64,000 nt of DNA from Longimicrobiales bacterium (lineage in GTDB: Bacteria; Gemmatimonadota; Gemmatimonadetes; Longimicrobiales; Gaopeijiaceae), in assembly GCA_965204735.1 (NCBI GenBank), contig OZ242008.1, forward strand, positions 704,001-768,000. Reading direction: 5' to 3'. The notes below the pieces were generated by a model. It had not been told where the DNA came from. It did no database searches and was given only the letters and a program-made list of their open reading frames with translations. The stretch's first letter is position 1; the number at the start of each line of letters is the position of its first letter. Positions 39,244 to 57,986 of this stretch are shown one piece after another. Made by a program: the position numbers and the translations under genes.

Positions 39244-39482
39244 CTGGCTCTTCCTGCTTGATTGGAGGTGCCCGGTCCGGCTGCCTTGCCAGTGCTTGAC
39301 ATGCGGGCGCCGCCCGGGCGAAGCTTGCGGAAGCGGCGCATCCTGACTTGGTTGCGGGAGCTGGAGCGGGAGGGCGGCAAGATGGAGAACGTCCGGGCGG
39401 TGCTGCAACCTTCTGTCGGACAACTCGGGCCAGGGAGCATGGAGCGATGAAGGTGGCCGGCCGGCGGAGGCCGTAGAGGCGG

Positions 39483-41063
39483 ATGCGCTACTTCAACACG
39501 TCCGGTCCGGTCGTGGCGGACGACCACTACCACGTCCCGCCCCTCGACCGACTCGACCTTGCCGAGGTCCGGGAGCTGATCGACGACCAGCGGTACTTCG
39601 TGCTTCACGCCCCCCGGCAGACCGGCAAGACGTCGGCCCTGCTGGCGCTCCAGGACCTGCTCAACGCGGAGGGCGGTTGCCGCTGCGTCTACGTCAACGT
39701 CGAAGGCGCCCAGGCGATGCGCGAAGACGTGGAGCGCGCGACTCGGGTCATGCTGGGCCAGATGGCCTTGCGGGCTCGGGACGCGCTTGGCGACGACTTC
39801 TTGTCCGGCGCATGGTCCGGCATCGCCGACGAGTTCCGGGAGGGTGCGCTGGGCGAGGCCCTGTCGCGTTGGGCGGAGGCCGACGAGAGGCCGCTGGTGC
39901 TGCTGATCGACGAGATCGACTCGCTGGTGGGCGACACGCTCCTGTCGGTGCTGCGTCAGCTTCGCGCAGACTATCCCCACCGGCCCGCCAGGTTCCCCCA
40001 GAGCGTGGTCCTGTGCGGTGTCCGGGACGTGCGCGACTACCGCATCTGGTCCAGCTCGGCGAAGACGATGGTCACGGGCGGCAGCGGCTTCAACATCGTG
40101 GCCGAGTCCCTGCGCCTGGCCGACTTCTCCCAGGCCGAGGTGCGCGACCTGCTCGGACAGCACACCGAAGAGACCGGCCAGCCGTTCACCGAAGCCGCGC
40201 TGGACGCGGTCTGGACCCAGACCCAGGGCCAGCCGTGGCTCGTCAACGCCCTGGCCTACGAGACCTGCTTCCGCGGCGACCTGGCCGCCGACCGGTCGCG
40301 ACCCGTGACCGAGGCGGACGTGCTGGATGCCCGCGAGCGGTTGATCCAGCGTCGCGACACCCACCTGGACCAGCTGACCGACAAGCTGCGGGAGGACCGC
40401 GTCCGGCGGGTCGTCGAGCCGCTCCTCGTGGGCGGCGAAGGGTTCGATGCCACGGCCGACGACATCGAGTACGTGCAGGACCTGGGCTTGGTCGCCCGAG
40501 ACGCTCCGCTCCGCTTGGCCAACCCGATCTACGCGGAGGCCGTGCCTCGCCAGCTCACGTGGCCGACCCAGCTCAAGATTCGGGAGGACCCGGCGTGGTA
40601 CGTGGACGCCGACGGCGCGTTGCTGCTGGACAAGCTGCTGGCGCGCTTCCAGGAGTTCTTCCGCGAGAACGCCGAGAGCTGGGTCGAGCGGTTCGACTAC
40701 AAAGAGGCGGGACCGCACCTGCTGCTGCAGGCGTTCTTGCAGCGGGTTGTCAACAGGGGCGGGCGGGTCGAGCGGGAGCACGGGCTGGGCCGAGGGCGCG
40801 CGGACCTGCTGATCCGGTGGCCGGAGGGCGACGAAGCGCGCAGCTACGTGGTCGAGTGCAAGGTTCGCCACGACCGCCGGGGCCTGGAGCGCACCGTGGC
40901 CAAGGGGGTGGAGCAGACGGCGGCCTACATGGACCGCTGCGGGGCCGAAGCGGGGCACCTGGTCGTCTTCGACCGCAGCGACGAGCGCAGCTGGGACGAG
41001 AAGGTCTTCCGCGACGTCCGCACCGCCGAGAGCGGGGCCGAGATCGCCGTGTGGGGGATGTGA
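39483..41063 (+). CDS. P-loop ATPase + C-terminal PD-(D/E)XK nuclease, copy 1
   Basis: Walker A HAPRQTGKTS, Walker B LLIDEID, GRADLLIRW...VVECKV. Confidence 0.9.
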   Translation: MRYFNTSGPVVADDHYHVPPLDRLDLAEVRELIDDQRYFVLHAPRQTGKTSALLALQDLLNAEGGCRCVYVNVEGAQAMREDVERATRVMLGQMALRARDALGDDFLSGAWSGIADEFREGALGEALSRWAEADERPLVLLIDEIDSLVGDTLLSVLRQLRADYPHRPARFPQSVVLCGVRDVRDYRIWSSSAKTMVTGGSGFNIVAESLRLADFSQAEVRDLLGQHTEETGQPFTEAALDAVWTQTQGQPWLVNALAYETCFRGDLAADRSRPVTEADVLDARERLIQRRDTHLDQLTDKLREDRVRRVVEPLLVGGEGFDATADDIEYVQDLGLVARDAPLRLANPIYAEAVPRQLTWPTQLKIREDPAWYVDADGALLLDKLLARFQEFFRENAESWVERFDYKEAGPHLLLQAFLQRVVNRGGRVEREHGLGRGRADLLIRWPEGDEARSYVVECKVRHDRRGLERTVAKGVEQTAAYMDRCGAEAGHLVVFDRSDERSWDEKVFRDVRTAESGAEIAVWGM

Positions 41064-42667
41064 TGTCGCCCCCAGACCCGTCGGCGATGCGCCGCTTCAA
41101 CAGATCCGGTCCGGTAGTGGAGGGGCGCCACTACTGCATCGCGCCCCTCGACCGACTCGACCTTGCCGAGGTCCGGGAGCTGATCGACGACCAGCAGTAC
41201 TTCGTGCTTCACGCCCCCCGGCAGACCGGCAAGACGTCGGCCTTGCTGGCGCTCCAGGACCTGCTCAACGCGGAGGGCGGCTGCCGCTGCGTATACGTCA
41301 ACGTCGAAGGCGCCCAGGCGATGCGCGAAGACGTGGAGCGCGCGACTCGGGTCATGCTGGGCCAGATGGCCTTGCGGGCTCGAGACGCGCTTGGCGACGA
41401 CTTCTTGTCCGGCGCATGGTCTGGCATCGCCGACGAGTTCCGCGACGGTGCGCTGGGAGCGGCCCTGACCCTCTGGGCCGAGGCCGACGCAAGGCCGCTG
41501 GTGCTGCTGATCGACGAGATCGACTCGCTGGTGGGCGACACGCTCCTGTCGGTGCTGCGCCAGCTTCGCGCTGGCTACGACATGCGGCCCGTCAGGTTCC
41601 CCCAGAGCGTGATCCTGTGCGGAGTCCGGGACGTGCGCGACTACCGCATCTGGTCCAGCTCGGAGAAGACGATGGTTGCGGGTGGCAGCGCCTTCAACAT
41701 CAAGGCCGAGTCCCTGCGCCTGGGCGACTTCTCCAAGGACGATGTGCACGACCTGCTCGGACAGCACACCGAGGAGACCGGCCAGCTGTTCACCGAAGCC
41801 GCGCTGGACGCGATCTGGACCCAGACCCAGGGCCAGCCGTGGCTGGTCAACGCCTTGGCCTACGAGACGTGCTTTCGCGGCGAGTTGGCCGCCGACCGGT
41901 CGCGACCCGTGACCGAGGCGGACGTGCTGGATGCCCGCGAGCGGTTGATCCAGCGTCGCGACACGCACCTGGACCAGCTGACCGACAAGCTGCGCGAGGA
42001 CCGCGTCCGGCGGGTCGTCGAGCCGCTCCTCGTGGGCGGCGAAGGGTTCGATGCCACGGCCGACGACATCGAGTACGTGCAGGACCTGGGCTTGGTCGCC
42101 CGAGACGCGCCGCTCCGCTTGGCCAACCCGATCTACGCGGAGGTCGTGCCTCGCCAGCTCACGTGGCCGACCCAGCTCAAGATTCGGGAGGACCCGGCGT
42201 GGTACGTGGACGCCGACGGCGCGTTGCTGCTGGACAAGCTGCTGGCGCGCTTCCAGGAGTTCTTCCGCGAGAACGCCGAGAGCTGGGTCGAGCGGTTCGA
42301 CTACAAGGAGGCCGGACCGCACCTGCTGCTGCAGGCGTTCTTGCAGCGGGTCGTCAACAGCGGCGGGCGGGTCGAGCGGGAGCACGGGCTGGGCCGAGGG
42401 CGCGCGGACCTGCTGATCCGGTGGCCGGAGGGCGACGAAGGGCGCAGCTACGTGGTCGAGTGCAAGGTTCGCCACGACCGCCGGGGCCTGGAGCGGACCG
42501 TGGCCGAGGGGGTGGAGCAGACGGCGGCGTACATGGACCGTTGCGGGGCCGAAGCGGGGCACCTGGTCGTCTTCGACCGCAGCGACGAGCGCAGCTGGGA
42601 CGAGAAGGTGTTCCGCGACGTCCGCACCGCCGAGAGCGGGGCCGAGATCGCTGTGTGGGGGATGTGA
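41063..42667 (+). CDS. P-loop ATPase + PD-(D/E)XK nuclease, copy 2
   Basis: Same motifs; TGATG overlap with copy 1 (alternative ATG at 41087). Confidence 0.9.
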   Translation: MSPPDPSAMRRFNRSGPVVEGRHYCIAPLDRLDLAEVRELIDDQQYFVLHAPRQTGKTSALLALQDLLNAEGGCRCVYVNVEGAQAMREDVERATRVMLGQMALRARDALGDDFLSGAWSGIADEFRDGALGAALTLWAEADARPLVLLIDEIDSLVGDTLLSVLRQLRAGYDMRPVRFPQSVILCGVRDVRDYRIWSSSEKTMVAGGSAFNIKAESLRLGDFSKDDVHDLLGQHTEETGQLFTEAALDAIWTQTQGQPWLVNALAYETCFRGELAADRSRPVTEADVLDARERLIQRRDTHLDQLTDKLREDRVRRVVEPLLVGGEGFDATADDIEYVQDLGLVARDAPLRLANPIYAEVVPRQLTWPTQLKIREDPAWYVDADGALLLDKLLARFQEFFRENAESWVERFDYKEAGPHLLLQAFLQRVVNSGGRVEREHGLGRGRADLLIRWPEGDEGRSYVVECKVRHDRRGLERTVAEGVEQTAAYMDRCGAEAGHLVVFDRSDERSWDEKVFRDVRTAESGAEIAVWGM

Positions 42668-44268
42668 TGTCGCCCCCAGGCCCGCCGGCGGTGCGCCGCT
42701 TCAACAGGTCCGGTCCGGTAGTGGAGGGGCGCCACTACTGCATCGCTCCCCTCGACCGACTCGACCTTGCCGAGGTCCGGGAGCTGATCGACGACCAGCA
42801 GTACTTCGTGCTTCACGCCCCCCGGCAGACCGGCAAGACGTCGGCCTTGCTGGCGCTCCAGGACCTGCTCAACGCGGAGGGCGGCTGCCGTTGCGTCTAC
42901 GTCAACGTCGAAGGCGCACAGGCGATGCGCGAAGACGTGGAGCGCGCGACTCGGGTCATACTGAGCCAGATGGCTCGCCAGGCACGGCGAACGGGCGACG
43001 ACTTCCTGACCGGGGCATGGTCTGAGATCGCCGCCGAACACGGCGCTGATGCGCTGGGCGAGGCCCTGTCGCGCTGGGCCGAGGCCGACGAGAGGCCGCT
43101 GGTGCTGCTGATCGACGAGATCGACTCGCTGGTGGGCGACACGCTCCTGTCGGTGCTGCGCCAGCTTCGCGCAGACTATCCCCACCGGCCCGCCAGGTTC
43201 CCCCAGAGCGTGATCCTGTGCGGCGTCCGCGACGTGCGCGACTGTCGCATCTGGTCCAGCTCGGCAAAGACGATGGTCACGGGCGGCAGCGGCTTCAACA
43301 TCGCGGCCGAGTCCCTGCGCTTGGGCGACTTCTCCCGGGACGAGGTGCACGACCTGCTCGGACAGCACACCGAAGAGACCGGCCAGCCGTTCACCGAAGC
43401 CGGGCTGGACACGATCTGGACCCAGACCCAGGGCCAGCCGTGGCTCGTCAACGCCCTGGCCTACGAGACGTGCTTTCGCGGCGAACTAGCGAAGGACCGG
43501 TCCCGCCCAGTGACCGAGGCGGACGTGCTGGACGCCCGCGAGCAGCTGATCCAGCACCGCGACACCCACCTGGACCAGCTGACCGACAAGCTGCGCGAGG
43601 ACCGCGTGTGGCGAGTCGTCGAACCGCTCCTGACCGGCGCCAGCGAGTCCAGCTACACCGCTCGGGACGTGGAGTACGTTCGGGACCTGGGCCTGATCGC
43701 CCACGCCCCCCCGATCCGCATGGCCAACCCCATCTACGCCGAGGTCGTGCCTCGGGAGCTGACTTGGCTGGCCCAGGACGACCTGCCGCACGACCCAGCC
43801 TGGTACGTGGACGCCTCCGGCGCCTTGCGCCTGGGCAAGCTGCTCGAAGCGTTCCAGGAGTTCTACCGCGAGAACTCGGAGCACTGGGTCGAGCGCTACG
43901 GCTTCAAGGAGGCGGGCCCGCAGCTGCTCTTGCAGGCGTTCCTGCAGCGGGTCGTCAACAGCGGCGGACGGATCGAGCGGGAGTACGCGCTGGGCGGTGG
44001 TCGCACCGACCTGCTGATCGTGTGGCCGCAGAGCGGGCGCGCGAGCAAGCATGTGGTCGAATGCAAGGTTCGCCACGAGCGCCGGGGCCGGGAGCGGACC
44101 GTGGCCGAAGGCGTGGAGCAGACGGCGGCCTACATGGACCGTTGCGGGGCCGAGGCCGGGCACCTGGTCGTCTTCGACCGCAGCGACGAGCGCAGCTGGG
44201 ACGAGAAGGTGTTCCGCGACGTCCGCACCGCCGAGAGCGGGGCCGAGATCGCAGTGTGGGGGATGTGA
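42667..44268 (+). CDS. P-loop ATPase + PD-(D/E)XK nuclease, copy 3
   Basis: Same motifs; TGATG overlap with copy 2; GRTDLLIVW...VVECKV. Confidence 0.9.
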   Translation: MSPPGPPAVRRFNRSGPVVEGRHYCIAPLDRLDLAEVRELIDDQQYFVLHAPRQTGKTSALLALQDLLNAEGGCRCVYVNVEGAQAMREDVERATRVILSQMARQARRTGDDFLTGAWSEIAAEHGADALGEALSRWAEADERPLVLLIDEIDSLVGDTLLSVLRQLRADYPHRPARFPQSVILCGVRDVRDCRIWSSSAKTMVTGGSGFNIAAESLRLGDFSRDEVHDLLGQHTEETGQPFTEAGLDTIWTQTQGQPWLVNALAYETCFRGELAKDRSRPVTEADVLDAREQLIQHRDTHLDQLTDKLREDRVWRVVEPLLTGASESSYTARDVEYVRDLGLIAHAPPIRMANPIYAEVVPRELTWLAQDDLPHDPAWYVDASGALRLGKLLEAFQEFYRENSEHWVERYGFKEAGPQLLLQAFLQRVVNSGGRIEREYALGGGRTDLLIVWPQSGRASKHVVECKVRHERRGRERTVAEGVEQTAAYMDRCGAEAGHLVVFDRSDERSWDEKVFRDVRTAESGAEIAVWGM

Positions 44269-45872
44269 TGTCGCCCCCAGGCCCGTCGGCGATGCGCTAC
44301 TTCAACACGTCCGGTCCAGTAGTGGCGGACGACCACTACCATGTCCCGCCCCTCTCTCGGGTCGACTTGGCCGAACTCCGTCTGTTGATCGACCAGAAGC
44401 GCTACTTCGTGCTTCACGCCCCCCGGCAGACCGGCAAGACGTCGGCCCTGCTTGCGCTCCAGGACCTGCTCAACGCGGAAGGCGGCTACCGCTGCGTCTA
44501 CGTCAACGTCGAAGGCGCACAGGCGATGCGCGAAGACGTGGAGCGCGCGACTCGGGTCATACTGGGCCAGCTGGCCTTGCGGGATCGAGACGCGCTTGGC
44601 GACGACTTCTTGTCCGGCGCATGGTCTGGCATCGCCGACGAGTTCCGCGACGGTGCGCTGGGAGCGGCCCTGACCCTCTGGGCCGAGGCCGACGCAAGGC
44701 CGCTGGTGCTGCTGATCGACGAGATCGACTCGCTGGTGGGCGACACGCTCCTGTCGGTGCTGCGCCAGCTTCGCGCCGGCTACGACATGCGGCCCGTCAG
44801 GTTCCCCCAGAGCGTGATCCTGTGCGGAGTCCGGGACGTGCGCGACTACCGCATCTGGTCCAGCTCGGAGAAGACGATGGTCACGGGCGGCAGCGCCTTC
44901 AACATCAAGGCCGAGTCCCTGCGCCTGGGCGACTTCTCCAAGGACGAGGTGCGCGACCTGCTCGGACAGCACACCGAAGAGACCGGCCAGCCGTTCACCG
45001 AAGCCGGGCTGGACGCGATCTGGACCCAGACCCAGGGCCAGCCGTGGCTCGTCAACGCCCTGGCCTACGAGACGTGCTTTCGCGGCGAACTAGCGAAGGA
45101 CCGGTCCCGCCCAGTGACCGAGGCGGACGTGCTGGACGCCCGCGATCAGCTGATCCAGCGCCGCGACACCCACCTGGACCAGCTGACCGACAAGCTGCGC
45201 GAGGACCGCGTGTGGCGAGTCGTCGAACCGCTCCTGACCGGCGCCAGCGAGTCCAGCTACACCGCTCGGGACGTGGAGTACGTTCGGGACCTGGGCCTGA
45301 TCGCCCACGCCCCCCCGATCCGCATGGCCAACCCCATCTACGCCGAGGTCGTGCCTCGGGAGCTGACTTGGCTGGCCCAGGACGACCTTCCCCACGACCC
45401 AGCCTGGTACGTGGACGCCTCCGGCGCCTTGCGCCTGGGCAAGCTGCTCGAAGCGTTCCAGGAGTTCTACCGCGAGAACTCGGAGCACTGGGTCGAGCGC
45501 TACGGCTTCAAGGAGGCGGGCCCGCAGCTGCTCTTGCAGGCGTTCCTGCAGCGGGTCGTCAACAGCGGCGGACGGATCGAGCGGGAGTACGCGCTGGGCG
45601 GTGGTCGCACCGACCTGCTGATCGTGTGGCCGCAGAGCGGGCGCGCGAGCAAGCATGTGGTCGAATGCAAGGTTCGCCACGAGCGCCGGGGCCGGGAGCG
45701 GACCGTGGCCGAAGGCGTGGAGCAGACGGCGGCCTACATGGACCGTTGCGGGGCCGAGGCCGGGCACCTGGTCGTCTTCGACCGCAGCGACGAGCGCAGC
45801 TGGGACGAGAAGGTCTTCCGCGACGCCCGCACAGCCGAGAACGGCGCCGAGATCGCAGTGTGGGGAGCGTGA
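44268..45872 (+). CDS. P-loop ATPase + PD-(D/E)XK nuclease, copy 4
   Basis: Same motifs; TGATG overlap with copy 3; stop overlaps GTG of the SNF2 helicase. Confidence 0.9.
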   Translation: MSPPGPSAMRYFNTSGPVVADDHYHVPPLSRVDLAELRLLIDQKRYFVLHAPRQTGKTSALLALQDLLNAEGGYRCVYVNVEGAQAMREDVERATRVILGQLALRDRDALGDDFLSGAWSGIADEFRDGALGAALTLWAEADARPLVLLIDEIDSLVGDTLLSVLRQLRAGYDMRPVRFPQSVILCGVRDVRDYRIWSSSEKTMVTGGSAFNIKAESLRLGDFSKDEVRDLLGQHTEETGQPFTEAGLDAIWTQTQGQPWLVNALAYETCFRGELAKDRSRPVTEADVLDARDQLIQRRDTHLDQLTDKLREDRVWRVVEPLLTGASESSYTARDVEYVRDLGLIAHAPPIRMANPIYAEVVPRELTWLAQDDLPHDPAWYVDASGALRLGKLLEAFQEFYRENSEHWVERYGFKEAGPQLLLQAFLQRVVNSGGRIEREYALGGGRTDLLIVWPQSGRASKHVVECKVRHERRGRERTVAEGVEQTAAYMDRCGAEAGHLVVFDRSDERSWDEKVFRDARTAENGAEIAVWGA

Positions 45873-48800
45873 CGGACGTCCCCCGCCCCGGAATGCTGGC
45901 CACCGTCCGCAACCGGCGCGGCGTGGTGGCGGCGGTGGAACCCCACGACGGCGAGCGCGGGCGGGTCCACCTGGTCCACTTGGAGTACGCGGACCATCAG
46001 TCGCCCCGAGAGGAGCGCCTTCTGTGGGAGATCGAAGGCAGGCCGTCTCTCCTGGAGCCCAACGCCCTGCCCAATCCGGCCCGTTCGCCCATGGCCGCGC
46101 CCGACTTCGACGCCATGCTTCGGGCGGCTCGGTGGACGGCCCTCTCGCCCTACCTCGACCCGTCCGGCGACGGCCGCCCGGCCCAGGAGCCCCTGGCCAG
46201 CCCCTTCCACGGCGGCGTCCGCATCGAGAACTACCAGCTGGTTCCTCTCTTGAAGGCGTTGCGCATGCCCCGGGTCAACCTGCTCATCGCCGACGACGTG
46301 GGGCTGGGCAAGACCGTGGAAGCCGGGTTGGTCCTGTCCGAGCTGCTGCTGCGCCGCCGCATCCGCCGGGTGCTGGTGCTGACGCCCGCGTCGCTCCGCC
46401 GTCAGTGGAGCGAGGAGATGCAGGAGAAGTTTTCGTTGCCCTTCGAGATCGTGGACCGGCTGAGCACGGAGAAGCTGCGCCGCCGCCAAGGCATGGACGC
46501 CAACCCCTGGCGCTCCTTCAGCCGCGTCGTGGCGTCGTACCACTACCTGCGCCAGCCGGACGTGCTGGAGCACTTCCGGGCGGCCTGCGACCACCAGACT
46601 CGCGAAGGCTCTCCACACCTGCCATGGGACCTGCTGATCGTCGACGAGTGCCACAACCTTATGCCGTCCCCGTTCGGCGAAGACAGCGAGCTGTGCAAGA
46701 TGCTGCGCTTTGTGGCCCCGCGCTTCGAGCACCGGCTCTTCCTGTCGGCCACGCCCCACAACGGCCACACCCGCTCGTTCACCGGGCTGCTGGAGATGCT
46801 GGACCCGGTCCGCTTCTCGCGCACCGGCGAGATGACGCCCGCCATGCGCGGACGCATCGACGACGTGGTGATTCGCCGGCTCAAGCGCGACATCAACGCG
46901 ACCGCGACCGGCGAGGGGACCGGCCCCCGCTTCTGCACCCGGTGCCCGCCCAAGGCCCTGACGCTCGCCTTCAGCCCGCACGAGACCCGCCTTTCTGCCG
47001 CCTTCGACGCCTTTCGCAGCGCCATCCGGGAGCAAGTCGCGGAAGGAGGCAAGCGCCGTCGCCGCGCCGGTGCGTTCGCGGTCGAGATCTTCGGCAAGCG
47101 GCTGCTCTCCTGCCCGACCGCCTTCGCCGAGTCGTGGAGCCGCGCCAAGCAGGGGTTCGAGGACCCGCAGGCCGCCGGCGACCGACAGCTTGCGACGGCG
47201 GAACGCTCGCTGCGCCAAGACACGGGCGACGATCGCGAGGCCCAGCAGCGCCAGGCCACGGCGTCGACGGTCGTAGGGGCGTGGCTGAAGAACTTCGCGG
47301 GCGACTTGACGGCCGAGGTCCATGGGATTGAAGACGCTCTTGCCCGGCTGGAGTTCGACTTGGACGCCGGCGCTGCGCCCGTCGTGTCCCAAACGCCCAT
47401 TGCCGACGCCCGCTTCGACCGGCTCTTGAAGCTCGTCGAGGGCCGTCTGCGCGGCGAGGGCCGGTTCCGCGGTGGCGAGCGGCTGGTCGTCTTCACGGAG
47501 TACAAGACGACCCTGGATTATGTGGCCCGCCGCCTGCGGGAGCGCTACGGAGACGAACGTATCCTGACCCTGTTCGGCGCGGGCGGCCCCGGCGGGATGG
47601 ACGAGTCGGGACGCGAGCACGTCAAGGCGGCGTTCAACGACCGCGTGTCCCCCGTGCGCATCCTCGTGGCCACCGACGCCGCGTCGGAGGGGCTCAACCT
47701 GCACCGCACGGCCCGCTACCTGCTCCACTGGGACTGTCCCTGGAACCCGTCTCGGCTGGAGCAGCGGAACGGCCGCCTGGACCGCTACGGCCAAGCCCGC
47801 GACGTGACCGTCCACCACTTCGTGAGCGACACGGACCCGGACTTGCGCTTTCTGGACCACGTGGTTCGCAAGGCCGACGACATCCGGGAGGACCTGGGGT
47901 CGGTCAACGAGGTCTTCGACCGTGCCGTTCACCGCCGCTTGGTTCGGGGCGAGGACGCCGCCGCCGTGCAGGCCGGGCTGGACTTGGAAGTGGAGGCGGC
48001 GCGAGGCCGTGCCAGCCTTGGCGGCGACGGAGCCGCCGACCGGACGTCCAACGGGACATCCGATGGGACATCAAACGGCGAAAATCGGGACATTTCGCTG
48101 GACATTTTAGCCGCCGAAATCGATTTCGACCCCGAAGCGGTCCGGGACACGCTGGAGGCGGCGATGGCTGACACCGCCGGGCGACCGCAGCTCGAGCCCG
48201 CCGCGCGCGCCCACGACACGGGGAGCAGCAGCAACGGCCGCGACGGCCTTCATCGCCTTGTGAACCCCGGCTTGCCCGGCTGGAGCCAAGTCGTGGACGA
48301 GTCCGTCCGCCGCCCCGGACTCGGCGGGGCGCAGGGACCGGTTCCCGCACTGGCTTTCAGTCCAAAGCCGTTCATCAAGAAGCGGGGCGACTTGAGCGTC
48401 TTTCGGCCGCGCAAGGATGCGTTGTTCGTCCACTTGGCCCACCCGATCATGCGTCATGCCTTGGGCGTGCTGGCGAAGCGGCGATACCCGGGCGCCGGGA
48501 GCGAGGCGTCGCGCTGGACCGCGCGTTACGGCGGCGTGCCGGAAGGAGCCGAGGCGGCGGTTCTGCTCAGCGTGGAGGAGATCGGCGTGAACAAGCTGCG
48601 GGAGACGTTCCACCGCTGGGTGCGGACGGTCGTGTTCCCGATGCGCGACGGCGAACTTGGATCGCCCCTTCCCCACGCGCCCGCCCGGTCGCTCCTGGGC
48701 GCAAGCGAGTGCGAGGACGCGGCTCGCCGGGAACAGGCCGCCGAGATCCTGGAAGCCGCCGCGCCGGCGCTCAAGCAGTGGATGCGCGATCACAGGCGCG

Positions 48801-49207
48801 CGCTCGGCGAGCGCTTGGCCGCCCAGCTCGAAGACGACGGCGCCGCCGCCCGGAAGCGCGAGCGCGACAGCTACCGACAGCGCCTGGCCGAAGTTTCCGA
48901 ACTGATCACACGCACCACGATGGACAGGTTGGGCCGTGAAATCGAGCGACTCAAGGGGCAGCGCGACCAAGGACAGCTCTTCAACGAAGCCGAGCGCTTG
49001 GCCGAGTTGGAGCGATCTATCGAGGAATGGGAAGAAGAGCTGAAGCGCCGTCGCTTCCATCACGACGAGATTCGCGACCAGCTCCAGCGAGAGCGCGACC
49101 GCACAGTGAAACGGCTGTTTCCCAAGCGCTTCGCCTTGGCGGGGACCGCCCAACTCTTTCCGGTGGCCGTGGAAGTGCGCCTTCCGGCAACGCGGCGTCG
49201 TCCGTGA
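45869..49207 (+). CDS. drmD: DISARM DrmD-like SNF2 helicase
   Basis: YQLVPLLKALRMPRVNLLIADDVGLGKT, LIVDECH, LSATPHNG, ATDAASEGLNL, WNPSRLEQRNGRLDRYGQ. Confidence 0.85.
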   Translation: MTDVPRPGMLATVRNRRGVVAAVEPHDGERGRVHLVHLEYADHQSPREERLLWEIEGRPSLLEPNALPNPARSPMAAPDFDAMLRAARWTALSPYLDPSGDGRPAQEPLASPFHGGVRIENYQLVPLLKALRMPRVNLLIADDVGLGKTVEAGLVLSELLLRRRIRRVLVLTPASLRRQWSEEMQEKFSLPFEIVDRLSTEKLRRRQGMDANPWRSFSRVVASYHYLRQPDVLEHFRAACDHQTREGSPHLPWDLLIVDECHNLMPSPFGEDSELCKMLRFVAPRFEHRLFLSATPHNGHTRSFTGLLEMLDPVRFSRTGEMTPAMRGRIDDVVIRRLKRDINATATGEGTGPRFCTRCPPKALTLAFSPHETRLSAAFDAFRSAIREQVAEGGKRRRRAGAFAVEIFGKRLLSCPTAFAESWSRAKQGFEDPQAAGDRQLATAERSLRQDTGDDREAQQRQATASTVVGAWLKNFAGDLTAEVHGIEDALARLEFDLDAGAAPVVSQTPIADARFDRLLKLVEGRLRGEGRFRGGERLVVFTEYKTTLDYVARRLRERYGDERILTLFGAGGPGGMDESGREHVKAAFNDRVSPVRILVATDAASEGLNLHRTARYLLHWDCPWNPSRLEQRNGRLDRYGQARDVTVHHFVSDTDPDLRFLDHVVRKADDIREDLGSVNEVFDRAVHRRLVRGEDAAAVQAGLDLEVEAARGRASLGGDGAADRTSNGTSDGTSNGENRDISLDILAAEIDFDPEAVRDTLEAAMADTAGRPQLEPAARAHDTGSSSNGRDGLHRLVNPGLPGWSQVVDESVRRPGLGGAQGPVPALAFSPKPFIKKRGDLSVFRPRKDALFVHLAHPIMRHALGVLAKRRYPGAGSEASRWTARYGGVPEGAEAAVLLSVEEIGVNKLRETFHRWVRTVVFPMRDGELGSPLPHAPARSLLGASECEDAARREQAAEILEAAAPALKQWMRDHRRALGERLAAQLEDDGAAARKRERDSYRQRLAEVSELITRTTMDRLGREIERLKGQRDQGQLFNEAERLAELERSIEEWEEELKRRRFHHDEIRDQLQRERDRTVKRLFPKRFALAGTAQLFPVAVEVRLPATRRRP

Positions 49208-52200
49208 CGACCGCCTCGCGCGCTGGTCAAGAGGTCCCCGGCTGGCGAGACCTGCGTCACGGCGGGCTCCTGCTGGACGGCCAACGTCTGGCCGACTTGG
49301 CGCCGCACACGCCCGACCCCTTGGACGGCTGGACCGAGCATCTGCTGCGGCGCCGCGCCACCGACCTGCGCCGCCACGCCACGGACGGAGCCCCGGCGTT
49401 CGCGAAGTTCGTGCTGGAGGAGGTGTGCGGGTTCGACGCCGGCACGGGCGCGTGGACCCGTGGCGCCAAGGTCTCGCCCGAGTGGAGTCGTCGAGCCCCG
49501 ACCGGAGAGGTCGTCAAGCCGCGCCAGCTGTGGGAGGGTCTCGGGGGCGGACGTCTGCCGGTGTTCATGGAACCCGGACCGCGCGTCGGGATCGGCAAGG
49601 GCCGCCGAACGGTCAGCCGGGTGCTCGGATGGCTTCGCGCCGGCAACGACCACTTGGCCCTGATCACCAACGGCAAGCAGTGGCGACTCCTCTTCGCCGG
49701 GTTGGACTTCGAGGCGTGGTGCGAGTGGGACATGGACCTGTGGTTCCAGGACGGCAAGCCCGCGCCCCAGGTGGACGCGCTCCGGACGCTGTTGCAGCCC
49801 AAGCTCTGGACTCCCGCGTCAAAGGACGCCGCCTCGCCTCTGCTCCAAGCGATTCGGGACACGCGCAAGGGACAGGCCGAGCTCTCGGAGACGCTGGGCG
49901 AGCGCGTGCGGGAAGCCGTCGAGGTCCTGATCCAGGGCCACGGAGAGGCGCTCAAGGAGCAGTGCTCCGACGTGGACCCCGCCGACATCTACCGGGCCGC
50001 CTGCCGAGTCGCGATGCGCCTCGTGGTGATCCTCTTCGCCGAGGCCCGGGACCTGTTGCCGAGGGACAACCCCGTCTACCACGCCAGCTACGGCCTCAAC
50101 GGCCTGATGGAGCGGCTGCAGTCGGCGGCCGGCGGCCATGCCCTGTCCCGCCGCTTCAGCGCATGGCCCCAGGTGCAGGCCCTCTTCACCTTGGTGCACG
50201 ACGGCTCCCACCTTCCCCAGATGCCGGTCAAGGACTACGGCGGCGAGCTCTTCAAGCCCGGCAGCGCGGAGTCGGCCGACGGCCTCTCCCGAGCCTTGGC
50301 GGTGTTCGAGACCGCCTGCTTGAAGCACGACGTACTGCCGGACGACGACGTTCGGCGCATGCTGGAGCGGATGACGCTCACGCGGGTCCGAATCCGCCAG
50401 GGCCGGGGCGGCACATGGGTCACCGTGCCCGTGGACTTCTCGGACCTGTCCTCCGACTACATCGGCATACTGTACGAAGGCTTGCTGGACTACGAGCTCA
50501 AGACGTCGCCGCCCGGCGAGCCCGTCATCTTCCTGGCGGCGGGCCACTACCCGGCATTGCCGTTGTCGCGCCTGGAGGCGATGGACGACAAGGCGATCAA
50601 GGCGCTGTTCAGCAACCTGAAGAAGGATGTTGCGACGGACGACGACGGACCGGAGGAGTCGGAGGGCCAAGCCGTTGCCAAAGGCGAGGCGAACGAAGCC
50701 GAAGGCGCCGCCGGGCCACTCGGCGACCCCAGCGAGGCTTCGCCGGACGGCGCCGACCCGCGATTTGCCAACCGCACCCGCGCCGAGAAGTGGGCGCGGA
50801 GGGCCGCGCACGTGGCTGGACTGGTCAAGAAACCCCGTGGCAAGCTCACCCCGGAGTGCCGACTGAAGGCCGAGGACGACTTGGCCCGAAAGGCCCGCAA
50901 GCTGGTCGCTCGCGTCGTGTTGCCCGGCGAGTGGTACTTGGTGCGGTGGGGCGGCACCCGAAAGGGGTCGGGCAGCTTCTACACGCGACCCGGCTTGGTC
51001 GTGCCCACGGTGCAGCGCACGTTGCGGCCTTTGGCCTACGACCCTCCGCTCGGCAAGGACGGCGAACCCGACCGAGACGCTCCTGCCGCAAAGTGGACGC
51101 CCAAGCGCCCCGAGCAGATCCTTGAACTGAAGGTGTGCGACCCGGCCTGTGGTTCGGGCGCGTTCGTGCTGTCGGCTTTGCGCTTCCTGACCAACGCGCT
51201 CTTCGCTTCTCTTCAGCGCCACGGACGCATCGAGCCGGACGGGGAGCGCACGCTGATTCGGTTGCTGGGCGCGCCGACCGAACACGAGCCGCACACCGAG
51301 CGTTTGGGCGACGAGATGATCCCCTGTCCGCAGGACCATGACGACTTCGAGCCCCGTCTGCGGGCCGTGCTGCGCCGCCACGTGGTGGAGCGCTGCATCT
51401 ACGCCGTGGACATCGACCCCTTGGCCGTCGAGCTCTGCCGCCTGTCGCTGTGGATCGAGACCATGGACCGGGGCCTGCCCTTCGGCTTCTTGGATCACAA
51501 GGTCAAGTGCGGCAACTCCCTCGTGGGCGCGTGGCTCGACCAGTTCGCCCACTACCCGGTCATGGCCTGGAAGAACCGCGAAGGCGGTGACAAGAACCAC
51601 GGCAACGGCATCCACTTCAAGAAGGGCGCCCGGACGAAAGCGATCAAGGCGTTCGTGAAGGACCGGTTGACGCCGGACTTGGCCTCGTTCCTCCGCGACC
51701 CCGACCTCTTCCTCGACGACCACCTGAAGCGCCACGACAACGCCCACCGCAGCGCGCTGGCCGTTCTGGAGAAAATGCACGCCCTGCCCGTGCAAGACGC
51801 GACGGAAAGGGCGCGGCTCTACCGCGACGAATTCGTGGGCTCGTCGGAGTGGTTGGCACTCAAGGAGGCGATGGACCTGTGGTGCGCCTGTTGGTTCTGG
51901 CCCGCCGACGACATCGCGTGCGCACCGTTGCCCTTGAGCTTCGCCGATCCGCCCCAAGAGACACGAGAGATCGCACGGCGCCTATCCGCCAAGATCCGTT
52001 TTTTCCACTGGGAGCTAGAGTTTCCGGATGTGTTCTGGGAAGAGGGCTCTGGCTTCAACGCGGTCCTCGGGAACCCCCCGTGGGACACCCGTCAGCCCAA
52101 CTCTAAAGAGTACTTTTCGAACATCGATCCAATCTATAGCTCCTACCCAAAACAGGAAGCATTGAGACGCCAAAGGGAATTTTTTTGTTGCTACGTCACA

Positions 52201-54297
52201 GAGCAACAATGGCTTGACTACACTGCCAGTTTTGCAAACGAATCACACTATATGAAATGCGTCTCGGATCCTTTTGGCGATTTCGCCAAGATCGTCAAGA
52301 AATCATCAATAAGATACAACAGTCATGCATGCACTCCACATCCGTATGTACACAGAGGTACAGGAAAGGCATACACTTACAAGTTGTTCTTGGAATACGC
52401 GCATGCCTTGTGTCGGACTAGCGGCAGGATCGGACTCATTGTACCATCGGGGGTTTATTCCGATAAAGGCACTAGTGCGCTCAGAGACTTGTTCTTGTCC
52501 TGTTGCCAATGGGAATGGCTGTTCGGATTGGAAAACCGAGATCGTATTTTTCCAATTTCAAGCAATTACAAGTTCAATCCCGTCATCATTGAGAAGGGTG
52601 GTTCTACTCGTGCGATCCGCACTGCCTTTATGCGTCGGAAGCTTGATGATTGGGAGGAGGCCGAAAGGATCGTAACCCAGTACTCCTACCAGCAGATCGA
52701 AAAATTCAATCCAAAGAGCCAAGCACTTTTGGAAATTCAGTCTAAACGTGACCTTGACATACTAGAGACGATGTCCGCCAGTGGTTGCCCCCTTGGCGAT
52801 GGCGGTGGAGTTGCCCCGGTTCGTGGTCCAGTAGAATCGGCGTGGCGATTTAGATATGCTACTGAGTTTAACATGACTAGCGATTCCAAGTTGTTTCCCT
52901 TAGTCCACCACTGGGAGGCGAAGAGGTACAGGCCCGACGAGTACAGTCGGTGGTTACACGGCGAATGGCTGCCCATCCACGAGTTGTGGGCGACAATGGG
53001 CATTGACCATTCTCATTCCCCTTCTCCACATCGGGATCGGAGCTTACGGTGTGCCCAGCCTCCATACGACATCTTGCCCATTCCGAGGGCCAAGGTGCCC
53101 CCCGGCATAATCCTGTCTCGCACGGGAGATGCTTGGATTCATGAGGATCAAGTGCAGGGCGTGGCACTGCCACTTATCGAAGGTAAGATGATGTATGTTG
53201 GTACATGGGCCGCGAGTGGCCTTCAATTCGACTCGACTGACCACCGGATTGATATCACCCCGAAGTACATGATCGATTCCCGTCACATTCGGAACGCTAG
53301 CGGACCGAAGCCGACGGGTAGGATAGCATTTCGACTTATCTCACGCAGTACAAATGAACGCACTGTCGTCGCCTCTGTAATTCCCAGATGGTACCCCTGC
53401 GCAAACTCGCTGGGGGTCTTGAATGTAGATCACCGTCTCGGTATTACGGACCTCTTGGAGCTCAGTGCCTATATGTCAAGCATTGTACTTGACTGGTCGG
53501 TTCGCCAGCGGATGGCGGGAGCTAATCTGAACTGGCATATTGTAGAATCCGTTAGCGTGCCCTCACCCAAATCTCTGTCCGGCGAGCTTGTTGCAAAATT
53601 CGCCAGCCATATGCTGTCAGGCATTCAGTTTGCGGCGGAATGGCTGTGTCTTGTGCATGACGTGCATCGTCCACAACCGTTTCTGGGCACTCTTCATGAA
53701 CGCACGCGCGTTTCTGTCATAGCTGATGTTGTGACAGCCGCTGTAATGGGATACTCGGAAAACGACGTTCGGCATGTCTTGGACGGATGTGATCTTCCTA
53801 GAGAAGCAATAGACAGTCGGGCGAGGAAGAAAGTACTGTCCAGAAAAGGATTCTGGCGTGTGGATCAGAGTCGACACCCCGAATGTCGTCGCACTGTTCT
53901 AACACTTGTGGCGTTTAGAGACTTGCAGTCCAGAATCAATAGTAGTGCGAATCAAGATGAAGGCATCCGGGCGTGGTTGAACCAGAACGACGGCGAAGGT
54001 TGGCGCATTCCCGAGGTCATTCGCCTAGCGGACTACGGTCTCGGAAATGACGGACGCGCCGAACGTCTGCAGCCAGTCGCCAGCAGTCTTGGTCCCAGAT
54101 TCTACAACTGGCAGATTGCCCAGGGCACCGAGGAGGCGTGGCAAGAATGTCACCTGCACGCTCGGAACCTACTCGGAAGGGAGGAGTATGCTAGATTTCT
54201 GAGGGACTTAGTAGCTCGTTGTCTTCAAGAAGGTTACACTGATATCAGTCGTTTGTACAACGACTACACGCTTAGCTTGGTCCGTGACCCGTCATGA
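49204..54297 (+). CDS. DrmMI/Type IIG-like N6-adenine DNA methyltransferase (large, with target-recognition region)
   Basis: GILYEGLL, RKGSGSFYT, CDPACGSG (motif I), FFHWELEFP, LGNPPW (motif IV); GTG overlaps drmD stop. Confidence 0.88.
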   Translation: MTTASRAGQEVPGWRDLRHGGLLLDGQRLADLAPHTPDPLDGWTEHLLRRRATDLRRHATDGAPAFAKFVLEEVCGFDAGTGAWTRGAKVSPEWSRRAPTGEVVKPRQLWEGLGGGRLPVFMEPGPRVGIGKGRRTVSRVLGWLRAGNDHLALITNGKQWRLLFAGLDFEAWCEWDMDLWFQDGKPAPQVDALRTLLQPKLWTPASKDAASPLLQAIRDTRKGQAELSETLGERVREAVEVLIQGHGEALKEQCSDVDPADIYRAACRVAMRLVVILFAEARDLLPRDNPVYHASYGLNGLMERLQSAAGGHALSRRFSAWPQVQALFTLVHDGSHLPQMPVKDYGGELFKPGSAESADGLSRALAVFETACLKHDVLPDDDVRRMLERMTLTRVRIRQGRGGTWVTVPVDFSDLSSDYIGILYEGLLDYELKTSPPGEPVIFLAAGHYPALPLSRLEAMDDKAIKALFSNLKKDVATDDDGPEESEGQAVAKGEANEAEGAAGPLGDPSEASPDGADPRFANRTRAEKWARRAAHVAGLVKKPRGKLTPECRLKAEDDLARKARKLVARVVLPGEWYLVRWGGTRKGSGSFYTRPGLVVPTVQRTLRPLAYDPPLGKDGEPDRDAPAAKWTPKRPEQILELKVCDPACGSGAFVLSALRFLTNALFASLQRHGRIEPDGERTLIRLLGAPTEHEPHTERLGDEMIPCPQDHDDFEPRLRAVLRRHVVERCIYAVDIDPLAVELCRLSLWIETMDRGLPFGFLDHKVKCGNSLVGAWLDQFAHYPVMAWKNREGGDKNHGNGIHFKKGARTKAIKAFVKDRLTPDLASFLRDPDLFLDDHLKRHDNAHRSALAVLEKMHALPVQDATERARLYRDEFVGSSEWLALKEAMDLWCACWFWPADDIACAPLPLSFADPPQETREIARRLSAKIRFFHWELEFPDVFWEEGSGFNAVLGNPPWDTRQPNSKEYFSNIDPIYSSYPKQEALRRQREFFCCYVTEQQWLDYTASFANESHYMKCVSDPFGDFAKIVKKSSIRYNSHACTPHPYVHRGTGKAYTYKLFLEYAHALCRTSGRIGLIVPSGVYSDKGTSALRDLFLSCCQWEWLFGLENRDRIFPISSNYKFNPVIIEKGGSTRAIRTAFMRRKLDDWEEAERIVTQYSYQQIEKFNPKSQALLEIQSKRDLDILETMSASGCPLGDGGGVAPVRGPVESAWRFRYATEFNMTSDSKLFPLVHHWEAKRYRPDEYSRWLHGEWLPIHELWATMGIDHSHSPSPHRDRSLRCAQPPYDILPIPRAKVPPGIILSRTGDAWIHEDQVQGVALPLIEGKMMYVGTWAASGLQFDSTDHRIDITPKYMIDSRHIRNASGPKPTGRIAFRLISRSTNERTVVASVIPRWYPCANSLGVLNVDHRLGITDLLELSAYMSSIVLDWSVRQRMAGANLNWHIVESVSVPSPKSLSGELVAKFASHMLSGIQFAAEWLCLVHDVHRPQPFLGTLHERTRVSVIADVVTAAVMGYSENDVRHVLDGCDLPREAIDSRARKKVLSRKGFWRVDQSRHPECRRTVLTLVAFRDLQSRINSSANQDEGIRAWLNQNDGEGWRIPEVIRLADYGLGNDGRAERLQPVASSLGPRFYNWQIAQGTEEAWQECHLHARNLLGREEYARFLRDLVARCLQEGYTDISRLYNDYTLSLVRDPS

Positions 54298-56264
54298 AGA
54301 CCATCCTCCCTGTCAACCTGGACGACCTTCTCGACTGCCGAACCGTCGAGTCGGAGCGGGTCGAGTTCAAGTGCTCCTGGGACCCCAAGACGACTGGCCC
54401 GCAGGTGCTCCGAACGATCTGCGCCTTCGCCAACGACCACCACAACCTCAACGGGGGGTACGTTGTCGTTGGCGTGGAGGAGCGGAACGGTCGGGCCGTG
54501 CTGCCGCCCGTGGGCCTGGTGCCCGAGACGGCCGAGGCGGCGGAGAAGTGGATTCGCGGCAACTGTAGACGCATCGATCCAGACTACCAACCGGTTCTGT
54601 CCCGCGAGTGGGTCGACGACCGACTGATTCTGGTGGCGTGGGCGTTTGCGAGTCAGGTGAGGCCGCACCGGGCGCCCGACGGGAAGGGGCGGCGACGGTA
54701 CTGGGTTCGTGTCGGCGCCGAAACCGTGGACGCGGAGCATGGCGGCCTATTGCAGCCGCTGGTGCAGCAGGCCGGCCGTGTGCCGTGGGACGATCGCAGG
54801 GCTATGGACGCGTGCGTCGAAGACATGCGGGAAACGAGGGTTCGGCAGTTCCTGCACGACGTGGGGAGCGGGCTCTTGGACGAGCCGGAGACCGAGACCG
54901 TCTATCGTGGAATGCGCCTTACCACCAAGGTGAACGATCACGAAGTGCCCAGGAACGTTGGACTGTTGTTGTTCTCGTCGGACCCTGCAGCGTGGTTTCG
55001 AGGTGCGTGGATCGAGGTCGTGCAGTTTGCGGCCGACCGTGACGGCGATGTCCAGGAAGAGCGCGTCTTCAAGGGCAGCCTCTTGGATCAGTTCCGCGAC
55101 TGCATGACTTACCTCGAGAACCTCTCGGTGAATCACGTCCAGAAGCAGAACCATCGCAGCCAAGTTCGAGGATGGGTCAACTTTCCGGTGCCCGCGATTC
55201 GAGAGGCCTTGGTCAACGCGCTCTACCATCGCAGCTACGACGTGGAGCACCCCGATCCCACGAAAGTCTACCTGTTTCCCGGCAAGGTGGAGATCGTCAG
55301 CTACCCCGGCCCGGTGCCAGGCGTGCAGTCGGAACACCTGGTGCCCGGCGCCGCATTTCGGGGCGCTCCCGCTCGAAACCGCCGGATCGGCGAGTTCTTC
55401 AAGGAGCTGAAGCTCGCCGAGCTGCGGCTGACAGGGCTTCCGAAGATGTATCGAGCGATGGAGGCCAACGGCTCGCCGCCGCCGCGGTTCAGGTTCGACG
55501 AGTCGCGGACGTACTTCCAGGTGACTCTGCCGGCCCACCCCGAGTACGCGGCGCTCTCTGCTCTTCGAGACGCGGCCCACCTGCGGGTGCTGGGGGACGA
55601 GGCAGAGGCGTCTCGCCGCGTCGAGGTCGCCTGGCAGGGCAACCCAGGCTCGGGAGCGCTCGCGGTCGAACTGATCCGAGCCTACGCCAAGAAGGGGGAG
55701 ACGGCCCGCGCCGAAGACGTGTTCCGCGCCTTCAAGGCTCAAGGACCGGGAGTCGCGGCTGTTCACGTGGCCAACGCGCTGGCGGAAGTCTTGGTGGCGG
55801 CCGGCGACCCCGAACGGGCGCGGCAGCTGCTCCAGCCGGACGACGCGGCCCGGTTCGGCCAGGACGCCATCGACGCCGCCATCGTGGCGCGACGAGCCCG
55901 CGACTCGCAGTTGGCGCACCAGCACTTCGAGCGCGCCGGCGAAGTCGTCTACGCCGACCCCCGCGCGATGCTTGAATTCGCCCAGACGAAGATGTGGCTG
56001 GCCAACGAGGCCCTGCGCAGCGGCATCCCCGAGTCCAACCGGCGCCTCCTTGCCGAGGCCCGGACCCTCCTGGAGCGCGTGCTGCAGCTGGACACGTCCC
56101 CGGCTTGCCACGCCTGGGCTTGGCGGGAACTCGCCCGCACCTTGACTTGGCTGGGAGCACCCCGGCGCGAAGCGGAGGAGGCCTACCAGAGGGCCATCGC
56201 GCTGCTGCCGTCGGAGGAACGGTTTCGGGAGGAGCTGGAGGGGCTGCGGGAGAACTCGGGGTGA
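54294..56264 (+). CDS. AlbA_2/Schlafen-domain + RecG-C-like (HATPase_c_4) + TPR protein
   Basis: ESERVEFK, RTICAFAN..GGY.VVGV, AIREALVNALYHRSY, RNRRIGEFFKEL..E...TG; helical TPR-like C-terminus. Confidence 0.8.
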   Translation: MKTILPVNLDDLLDCRTVESERVEFKCSWDPKTTGPQVLRTICAFANDHHNLNGGYVVVGVEERNGRAVLPPVGLVPETAEAAEKWIRGNCRRIDPDYQPVLSREWVDDRLILVAWAFASQVRPHRAPDGKGRRRYWVRVGAETVDAEHGGLLQPLVQQAGRVPWDDRRAMDACVEDMRETRVRQFLHDVGSGLLDEPETETVYRGMRLTTKVNDHEVPRNVGLLLFSSDPAAWFRGAWIEVVQFAADRDGDVQEERVFKGSLLDQFRDCMTYLENLSVNHVQKQNHRSQVRGWVNFPVPAIREALVNALYHRSYDVEHPDPTKVYLFPGKVEIVSYPGPVPGVQSEHLVPGAAFRGAPARNRRIGEFFKELKLAELRLTGLPKMYRAMEANGSPPPRFRFDESRTYFQVTLPAHPEYAALSALRDAAHLRVLGDEAEASRRVEVAWQGNPGSGALAVELIRAYAKKGETARAEDVFRAFKAQGPGVAAVHVANALAEVLVAAGDPERARQLLQPDDAARFGQDAIDAAIVARRARDSQLAHQHFERAGEVVYADPRAMLEFAQTKMWLANEALRSGIPESNRRLLAEARTLLERVLQLDTSPACHAWAWRELARTLTWLGAPRREAEEAYQRAIALLPSEERFREELEGLRENSG

Positions 56265-56383: not shown

Positions 56384-56614
56384 CTATTCGCCGCGCTGCT
56401 CAAAGACCTGCCGTCCTAGCCCCGAGTGGCGGATTATCGCACCCAGGGTTCCTTGGGCGACTTGGCGGTGGTTAGGGACTACGACCGTGGTTGTTCCCTC
56501 GCCGGCCTGCCGTTGCATAACGATGTGGCTGCCACGCCGCCGGGCCTCCAGGAAGCCGTGACGTTCAAGAATTCGGCAGACCTCGCGTGCAGAAAATACC
56601 CCCAGCCTACCCAA
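56384..56614 (-). CDS. hicA: HicA-family mRNA interferase toxin
   Basis: LERHGF...RRRGSHIVM...VVVPNH....GTL.AI. Confidence 0.9.
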   Translation of the reverse strand: MGRLGVFSAREVCRILERHGFLEARRRGSHIVMQRQAGEGTTTVVVPNHRQVAQGTLGAIIRHSGLGRQVFEQRGE

Positions 56615-56828
56615 CGGCGACTTCGACGTCGGTAACGTAGAACTCCGGTCGAACCCTTGCCATCTTCTCGGCGGGCGACGCGCATTCGATGAACAGCTCG
56701 ACGGCTTCCTTGAGATTGTCTCGAGCTTCTTGAATGGTGTGTCCTTGCGTAACCACGTCGAAGTGTGGACAGGTCGCGACGTACAGGTCGCCCTCGCGTT
56801 CGATGATTGCGGTCAGCGTTCTCGTCAC
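56607..56828 (-). CDS. hicB: HicB-family antitoxin (short form)
   Basis: AIIEREGDLYVATCP...VTQG.TIQEARDNLKEAVELF; AAGGAGG RBS before GTG at 56828. Confidence 0.9.
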   Translation of the reverse strand: MTRTLTAIIEREGDLYVATCPHFDVVTQGHTIQEARDNLKEAVELFIECASPAEKMARVRPEFYVTDVEVAVG

Positions 56829-57474: not shown

Positions 57475-57580
57475 CTACTACATGCTCCTGTTCTCCGGGT
57501 GTCTGAACTGAAGTCCGTGTCCCGCTGAAAGCAATATGCCCGCCGGAACCTTGGCCGTCAACTGCCTGGCTCATCGCGCT

Positions 57581-57915: not shown

Positions 57916-57986
57916 CAAATAGTGAGTGGTGACCAAGTTCGTTGGATGCCCGGACCGCCCATTTCCCCGGCAAGAGGAGGCCGCAG

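Follow-up and report, generated by a model that had tools for sequence, protein, structure and literature searches.

The stretch analysed here, 64,000 nucleotides (nt) of the genome of a Longimicrobiales bacterium (contig OZ242008.1, positions 704,001 to 768,000; hereafter the window), contains seven consecutive open reading frames (ORFs) on the plus strand at 39483-56264, all of them open: four copies of an ATPase-nuclease gene (A1-A4), a Snf2 helicase gene, a methyltransferase gene and an AlbA_2-TPR gene. With a probability of roughly 0.6, we read this locus, together with a YprA-family helicase gene further downstream, as a defence cassette of ARMADA type I layout with a captured, amplifying array of ATPase-nuclease passengers, which would be cargo rather than a subunit. 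This reading builds on direct observations, namely the gene content, a scattered family that is amplified site by site, the grouping of the ATPase-bearing cassettes in one clade and the mosaic make-up of the four copies. In the following, G000 denotes the source genome of the window, G002 the sister species, and G001, G003 and G041 further related genomes.

The core cassette

The seven genes and the six stop/start overlaps that join them, as read from the sequence (TGATG at 41061, 42665 and 44266, GTGA at 45869 and 49204, ATGA at 54294), are present as described in an initial annotation of the window, and the domain labels given there hold. However, the core listed in that annotation missed the third core gene, a YprA-family, ArmC-like helicase of 1,988 amino acids (aa) on the plus strand (58558-64524), which extends 524 bases beyond the window end at 64000. 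A 1,815-aa minus-strand ORF at 58474-63921 was rejected as a shadow of this gene. DEAD, Helicase_C and fused MZB/DUF1998 domains are followed by a Vsr-fold domain and then an S24 domain, all in the one YprA ORF. With regard to the BrxA-like insert and the zinc-binding beta-barrel of ARMADA type I, CxxC motifs were noted in YprA at 525, 599, 613 and 641. Its best PADLOC matches are DruE, and no DrmA model of PADLOC was matched at E<=1e-15. A model of the part behind DUF1998 (predicted local distance difference test score, pLDDT, 73) resembled 3r3p most closely (Z 10.5, root-mean-square deviation (rmsd) 2.8 over 93 residues), followed by 3hrl (Z 8.7) and Vsr 1cw0 (Z 8.4). The same model returned nothing at E<=0.001 in Foldseek, where 3r3p again ranked first, and sequence searches with this domain were blank or weak (DUF559 at E 0.023 in one of ten). 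Going by the model, the Vsr fold of YprA would give the cassette a nuclease of its own.

The first core gene, encoding a Snf2/RapA-like helicase (45869..49207, plus strand; DrmD-like, ArmA of ARMADA), scores 659 bits on NF038317 (DISARM_DrmD; cut-off 610). The DrmDs of the two class I DISARM-type loci of G000 score about 1,000, and the one included in the tree forms a clade separate from the cassette Snf2. The second core gene encodes a large, ArmB-like adenine methyltransferase (49204..54297, plus strand) with DPACGSG at 646 and NPPW at 957, which reaches 1,217 bits on the PADLOC type IIG model versus 405 on DrmMI; a DISARM-type methyltransferase elsewhere in G000 reaches 1,187 on DrmMI. Between G000 and G002, residues 1-900 of the methyltransferase are 85-97% identical, and beyond residue 900 only 33-61%. 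Because of this drop, the C-terminal half, which is low in GC (about 0.51 at 52-54 kb), is likely an exchanged specificity region. The low-GC half (51900-54297) also differs among G000, G002 and G041, with the N-terminal half being conserved.

In the available part of Bell et al. (10.1101/2025.09.15.676423), ARMADA type I is described as YprA plus a RapA-like helicase and a PglX-like methyltransferase, with a C-terminal Vsr domain and without UvrD. The same source, as far as it is available, names 3hrl as a structural match of the type I Vsr domain, reports a Snf2-first, reversed gene order in some lineages (many archaea, cyanobacteria) and holds entries for type I helicases in Gemmatimonadota in its Table S1. 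The window agrees with this in its RapA/Snf2 helicase, its large adenine methyltransferase and its DruE-like YprA with fused DUF1998 and C-terminal Vsr fold, of which 3hrl is the second fold match. When the downstream ORFs were read, without a family scan, no UvrD (GajB/ArmD) gene was noticed after YprA. An integrase gene was not seen in the cassette unit either. In contrast to ARMADA type I, the window has the order Snf2-methyltransferase-[cargo]-YprA, an S24 domain after the Vsr domain and, in one clade, an ATPase-nuclease array preceding the core. The Snf2-methyltransferase-YprA trio recurs in all eight other Gemmatimonadota loci, and the best match of YprA among plasmid records, CP101713 (46%), has the same gene order. 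Labelled plasmid matches of YprA are distant (27-34% identity) and mixed, AP025604 and NC_017457 being ARMADA I and CP013238 Druantia III-B-like, and it is for this reason that the likely membership in ARMADA type I rests on architecture.

With class I DISARM, the window shares a DrmD-like Snf2 and an adenine methyltransferase. However, DrmA and DrmB are separate in DISARM and DrmC is usually present, the latter being reported as dispensable (PMC9142583, available part), whereas the window core has neither split DrmA/DrmB nor DrmC: DEAD, Helicase_C and MZB are contained in the single 1,988-aa ORF. As stated in the initial annotation, DrmC, a phospholipase D (PLD) nuclease, is absent from the window; there is no PLD gene at the locus, and the nearest PLDc_2 match lies about 77 kb beyond the cassette. 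Two other DISARM-type loci are present in G000 (G000:C1:2681791-2696143 and 3445777-3462872; L006-L009), the first with a 1,731-aa ORF that matches DrmA strongly (852 bits) and with a split methyltransferase; a PLD match is absent at both. The proposed DISARM-like core is confirmed as a methylation-linked defence cassette, but with a YprA helicase fused to DUF1998 it is ARMADA type I-like and not DISARM. The further suggestion that the array acts in place of DrmC falls away, because an ARMADA type I-like core, whose YprA has its own Vsr-fold domain, needs no such substitute.

The ATPase-nuclease protein

The four ATPase-nuclease genes, A1 (39483..41063, 526 aa), A2 (41063..42667), A3 (42667..44268) and A4 (44268..45872, with a stop that overlaps the Snf2 start in GTGA), all lie on the plus strand and are 87-95% identical in DNA. 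For A1, Pfam AAA_22 was found above its cut-off and PDDEXK_9 weakly. The model of A1 (pLDDT 92.8) is closest to the archaeal ATPases 2qen (Z 17.9, rmsd 3.8 over 310 residues) and 2fna (Z 15.7), and further fold matches are NLR cores, Cdc6/Orc1 (14.3), MuB and TnsC. The protein is laid out as an ORC/Cdc6-STAND AAA+ domain (Walker A 42-50, Walker B D143/E144), a winged helix and a PD-(D/E)XK-type C-terminus with the residues D441 and E458-x-K460, which we take to be a motif of the D...ExK type. D441 is nearly invariant in the family, and ExK is present in the displayed copies except for one ExR. Profile matches of the C-terminal domain are weak (PDDEXK_9, NucS_C). No copy matched PADLOC or NCBIfam, which bears out the initial view that the protein is not a known subunit, and a sequence search of the PDB gave only Walker-motif matches. 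The family comprises 996 clusters at 50% identity (E<=1e-30).

The combination of ATPase and PD-(D/E)XK nuclease is also the architecture of DUF1703 (PF09820 AAA-ATPase_like plus PF08011 PDDEXK_9), for which lineage-specific expansion and paralog recombination were described in the symbiont Cardinium, the function being given as unknown (PMC6387759, available part). Expansion and recombination among paralogs are found in the ATPase-nuclease family too. However, only 13 and 16 of 70 family members match the two DUF1703 profiles at E<=0.01, and weakly; the four window copies reach at most about 20 bits on PF08011 (cut-off 25.5), with PF09820 unlisted. Judged by these profiles, the ATPase-nuclease is a subfamily separate from DUF1703. 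Zhang et al. 2016 are said to have described a class of Orc/CDC6-STAND NTPase plus restriction endonuclease (REase) proteins as relatives of CR effectors. The window protein resembles these Orc/CDC6-STAND NTPase plus REase proteins, as well as 2qen and 2fna, in fold and domain order, and the available parts of three papers (PMC10853773, PMC5289972, PMC11342252) present Orc/CDC6-NTPase+REase proteins as prokaryotic relatives of CR effectors. No description of the subfamily beside ARMADA or DISARM was found in the literature, although the subscription literature may hold one; passages of PMC3632139 gave nothing of relevance.

Many solo copies (L040-L042, L046, L130, L132, L141, L158) are preceded by a motif seen by eye, TTGC...17 nt...CAAGTT/CACCTT, which ends 5-7 nt before the ATG. 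This motif suggests leaderless transcripts from an own promoter.

Mosaic structure and gene junctions

The four copies are a three-block recombinant mosaic. In block I (nt 1-160), A1 equals A4 and A2 equals A3; in block II (nt 300-650), A1 equals A3 and A2 equals A4; and in block III (nt 715-1470), A1 equals A2 and A3 equals A4. A2 accordingly pairs with A3, A4 and A1 in blocks I, II and III, and A3 with A2, A1 and A4. The 161 informative sites fall into 6 runs, compared with a mean of 61 and a minimum of 45 in 10,000 shuffles. Since a whole-gene tree of 51 copies is confounded by recombination, it was not used for the order of events. The array proteins are maintained, yet all family matches in G001 are partial and several copies in G002 and G003 are broken, a picture to be expected from birth-and-death turnover.

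The stop/start overlaps by themselves carry little weight, because starts at -4 or -1 are common in G000 (153 of 392 close same-strand neighbours permit one, by crude gene calls) and because many of the 51 family copies terminate in ATG-TGA, so that GTGA is built in. Moreover, the solo copy L037 shares a TGATG junction with an unrelated gene, and the three TGATG junctions of the array are copies of one junction. In A2-A4, the conserved start of the family (M/V-R-x-F-N) follows 24 nt after the TGATG start and in frame, and the spacer in G002 has the same length; use of the overlapping ATG as the start of A2-A4 is thus no more than plausible.

With regard to assembly support, the junction between the ATPase end and the Snf2 start is bridged by contigs of three runs from three studies; one run may be the source sample. 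In the same run search, the A2/A3 junction was bridged by one contig, and no single contig spanning the whole array was found among the pieces listed in public runs. The runs containing the locus include sponge metagenomes.

Distribution of the family and of the cassette

The cassette-side set consisted of 13 loci with the cassette Snf2 subtype, namely the window, four related loci and eight further Gemmatimonadota loci. ATPase-nuclease genes stand directly before Snf2 in three of them (4 copies in G000, 3 in G002 and 1 in G041), and these three cassettes form one clade in the Snf2 tree (support 1.0). None of the eight further Gemmatimonadota cassettes (Snf2 52-65% identical) has a family member within about 9 kb upstream, and in three of those eight genomes the family is located elsewhere. 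The loci L050, with 994 bases upstream only, and L051, which is degraded, also lack the ATPase-nuclease. The recurrence beside drmD that the initial annotation had proposed to look for was therefore found directly before Snf2 in G002 and G041, but it is confined to a single clade and to 3/13 loci. In the phylum-wide searches, where the two to three best candidates were scored per genome and counts are lower bounds, eight other genomes had both the family and a DrmD over the cut-off; the two were adjacent in none of the eight, and the closest pair was about 20 kb apart (G179).

The initial annotation had named scatter of the family through unrelated contexts as an argument against its own proposal, and such scatter is seen in G000 and its relatives. 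Three solo copies and one fragment were found in G000, and 21 family sites in G002, one of which is beside the cassette Snf2 subtype. Of the six sites in G003, two are triple arrays, and that genome lacks a close Snf2 (best 35-36%). One of these triple arrays is located at the trxA site, which carries a single copy in G000, and from this it can be concluded that arrays grow site by site. Among 78 metagenome family loci, most of them on short contigs, none had the cassette Snf2 subtype; two had Snf2 matches of 25-27% and one a weak YprA.

Enrichment near methylation defence was assessed with a panel of 14 proteins in 4-kb flanks, against a background of random G000 positions (5.4%). Without correction, a methylation-defence gene was near 10 of 58 family sites. 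After seven rows picked through Snf2 had been dropped, the window added and the three related cassettes counted once, the count was 5 of 50 (p=0.13, with a background from G000 only and a few sites being orthologous). With the clade as one event, enrichment near methylation-defence genes is not significant.

As a looser link, seen in one other genus, three loci (L238, L242 and L243 in G204, G100 and G234) have a YprA-first helicase-Snf2-methyltransferase cassette with a convergent ATPase-nuclease 2-3 kb beyond.

History of the unit

The three ATPase-bearing cassettes occupy three different sites; the site of G002 is empty in G000, and that of G041 is occupied by a solo copy in G002. Between G000 and G002, the identity of the cassette amounts to 95.5% (15 chunks), and other stretches have a median of 79% (124 chunks); because the cassette is so much closer than other stretches, horizontal transfer of the cassette is suggested. 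Other restriction-modification (R-M) and mobile islands are similarly close between the two genomes. The junction in G002 contains an ATPase stub of 24 codons and, between this stub and the first ATPase, a 36-nt piece that agrees in 29 of 36 positions with the final 36 nt of the YprA gene of G002 itself. This was the best non-self match among all loci compared, with the best in G000 being 26, and we infer that the piece would fit an earlier head-to-tail or circular form. The S24-bearing genes of G002 and G003 were considered as its source and do not explain it.

Filled and empty sites could be compared for the G002 solo copies L137, L133, L132 and L140, where about 1.7-1.9 kb is replaced by 7-49 nt in G000. 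At the 7 sites compared, where a flank identity of about 80% blurs the ends, neither element ends nor inverted repeats nor target duplications could be made out. Just upstream of the array, at 39270..39405 (no strand assigned), there is a remnant of a gene repeat that we take to be Rpn/YhgA-like and that likely marks a rearrangement breakpoint. Nine other copies of 100-137 nt exist in G000 (87-89% identity), and in G002 the repeat lies inside Rpn-like ORFs. In G001, G002 and G003, the M28 peptidase gene adjoins another gene than here, and rearrangement at the Rpn-like repeat may account for the array position in G000.

Alternative explanations

Several observations weigh against a mere passenger. 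The -4 overlap between ATPase and Snf2 is kept in all three clade members (ATGA in G002, GTGA in G041) at Snf2 identities down to 76%, the array stayed joined to the cassette at three different chromosomal sites, and all four copies are intact, with ratios of nonsynonymous to synonymous substitution (dN/dS) of 0.23-0.57. When related cassettes were counted separately and the nine last-fetched sites dropped, enrichment near methylation defence was 6/43 (p=0.027). Further copies are found near defence genes: in G279, at a distance of 0.2 kb in front of another Snf2 gene and of 5 nt in front of a methylase-like gene; in G289, tail-to-tail with a presumed type III R-M pair; in G204, G234 and G100, 2-3 kb from a YprA-first cassette; in G179, some 8 kb past a DISARM locus that includes DrmC; and in G235, also near a defence locus. 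These neighbourhoods vary in orientation and spacing, and most of these copies had been chosen for their closeness to an Snf2 match; the labels DUF1156, DUF499 and type III R-M at some of them are our assumption from motifs. In addition, the ARMADA type tested by Bell et al. (10.1101/2025.09.15.676423, available part) is type II only, not type I. Much of this could be accommodated if the ATPase-nuclease had been co-opted in this clade as an accessory effector that serves the cassette as a back-up or auxiliary nuclease, with block shuffling diversifying DNA recognition. The purifying selection and the fact that the four copies combine two alleles at three blocks in four different ways would suit such a role, and boundary-encoded nucleases were proposed as back-ups for another modification system (PMC10853773, available part). 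We nevertheless consider co-option rather unlikely: the array is missing from 10 of the 13 loci with the cassette Snf2 subtype, a Vsr-fold domain is already part of YprA, triple arrays are also found apart from the cassette, and the enrichment vanishes into non-significance once the clade is one event.

Somewhat more doubtful is a mobile element of one gene that joins a TnsC/MuB-like ATPase with a restriction-fold nuclease; it would insert near gene ends and would have mobilised the unit from ATPase to YprA through a circular or head-to-tail intermediate. The empty G000 counterparts of G002 solo copies and of the G002 cassette site, the 95.5% cassette identity, the 36-nt YprA-end match before the first ATPase in G002 and the presence of MuB and TnsC among the fold matches are in line with this, as is a link of Orc/CDC6-NTPase+REase proteins to Tn7/Mu transposases (PMC10853773, available part). 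It would be equally doubtful that an undescribed element without terminal repeats took up the ARMADA cassette and transports it from one symbiont species to another, its tandem copies reshuffling three blocks. However, common termini, inverted repeats and target duplications are missing at the 7 compared sites, copies differ by 20-40% in protein, some sites are common across species, and there were 0 matches in 50,697 phage records and only 14 plasmid records. Furthermore, the Rpn-like repeat rearrangement can account for the site in G000, and gain and loss are indistinguishable. A class I DISARM with the array replacing DrmC is very improbable and largely refuted already: the Snf2 score over the DISARM_DrmD cut-off, the DrmMI matches of the methyltransferase and the missing PLD gene speak for it, but the helicase contains a fused DUF1998 and finds its matches in DruE instead of DrmA, DISARM loci elsewhere in G000 give DrmA and DrmMI scores of 852 and 1,187 bits, and DrmC itself is dispensable according to the report cited above. 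That the four-copy mosaic is an assembly artefact is hardly credible either; the high identity of the copies and the missing spanning contig would allow it, but the blocks are clean, a separate array of three copies occupies the corresponding place in G002 and junctions are bridged in other runs.

Variable slot and neighbouring genes

The Schlafen/AlbA_2-RecG_C-TPR gene identified by domain scan (54294..56264, plus strand) appears to be variable cargo. It is common to the three ATPase-bearing cassettes, with 95% identity in G002 and 85% in G041, and was found elsewhere only as a 25% paralog in G420, with none in the other seven cassettes. The slot between methyltransferase and YprA holds different cargo in each cassette read; in G002, it includes an IetA gene (L048:20667-21695, 495 bits in PADLOC) that overlaps the AlbA_2 gene. 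The slot of the window continues with small HicB-like and presumably HicA-like genes on the minus strand (56384..56969; UPF0150 at E 1e-4, below cut-off, and no PADLOC match), the latter label being taken from a motif. A frameshifted remnant of the 3' end of the AlbA_2-TPR gene (57560-57800), also present in G002, and a SocA/Panacea antitoxin-like gene (57942..58499, plus strand; PF13274 57.5 bits, above cut-off) complete the slot.

A second dispersed, tandemly amplified family, presumably Rpn/YhgA-like, was noted at G000:C1:2825429-2828271, 3162648-3170000 and 2171956-2173814; partial copies of it are numerous in G000 and G002. In another genome, G383:C1:4433-6013 and 21415-22995 (L244-L245) are two equal-scoring, inverted ATPase-nuclease copies, each flanked by large repeat-rich surface-protein genes. 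Upstream in the window, a 503-aa ORF without Pfam match on the minus strand (33447-34958), which we take to be transposase-like, lies beside a low-GC 245-aa ORF (32340-33077).

Proposed function and implications

For an ARMADA type I-like cassette with a passenger array, the Snf2-methyltransferase-YprA genes would block invading DNA on their own. By analogy with the tested ARMADA type II, the methyltransferase would mark self DNA, its exchangeable C-terminal half would set the target, and unmarked DNA would be stopped by both helicases together with the Vsr domain. Each array protein may be a stand-alone ATP-gated DNase independent of ARMADA, in which an AAA+ switch would be combined with a DNA-binding winged helix and a PD-(D/E)XK nuclease. 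One ATPase-nuclease copy would have come to the Snf2 start and been captured once; tandem duplication, followed by shuffling through unequal crossing-over or gene conversion, could then have produced the 1, 3 and 4 copies of the three genomes. The array would be read on the same transcript as the cassette.

The cassette is most likely an example of ARMADA type I that annotation based on cut-offs would call DISARM, and it calls for caution, as a gene is not a subunit merely because its start or stop codon overlaps that of a defence gene. At the same time, block shuffling can be seen cleanly in this natural array, within an ATPase-nuclease family that is large and uncharacterised. With matched copies that are solo, arrayed or linked to the cassette, one can ask whether these genes are selfish elements or stand-alone defences. 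If it were true that the family mobilises the cassette, this would be a new route of defence-island spread.

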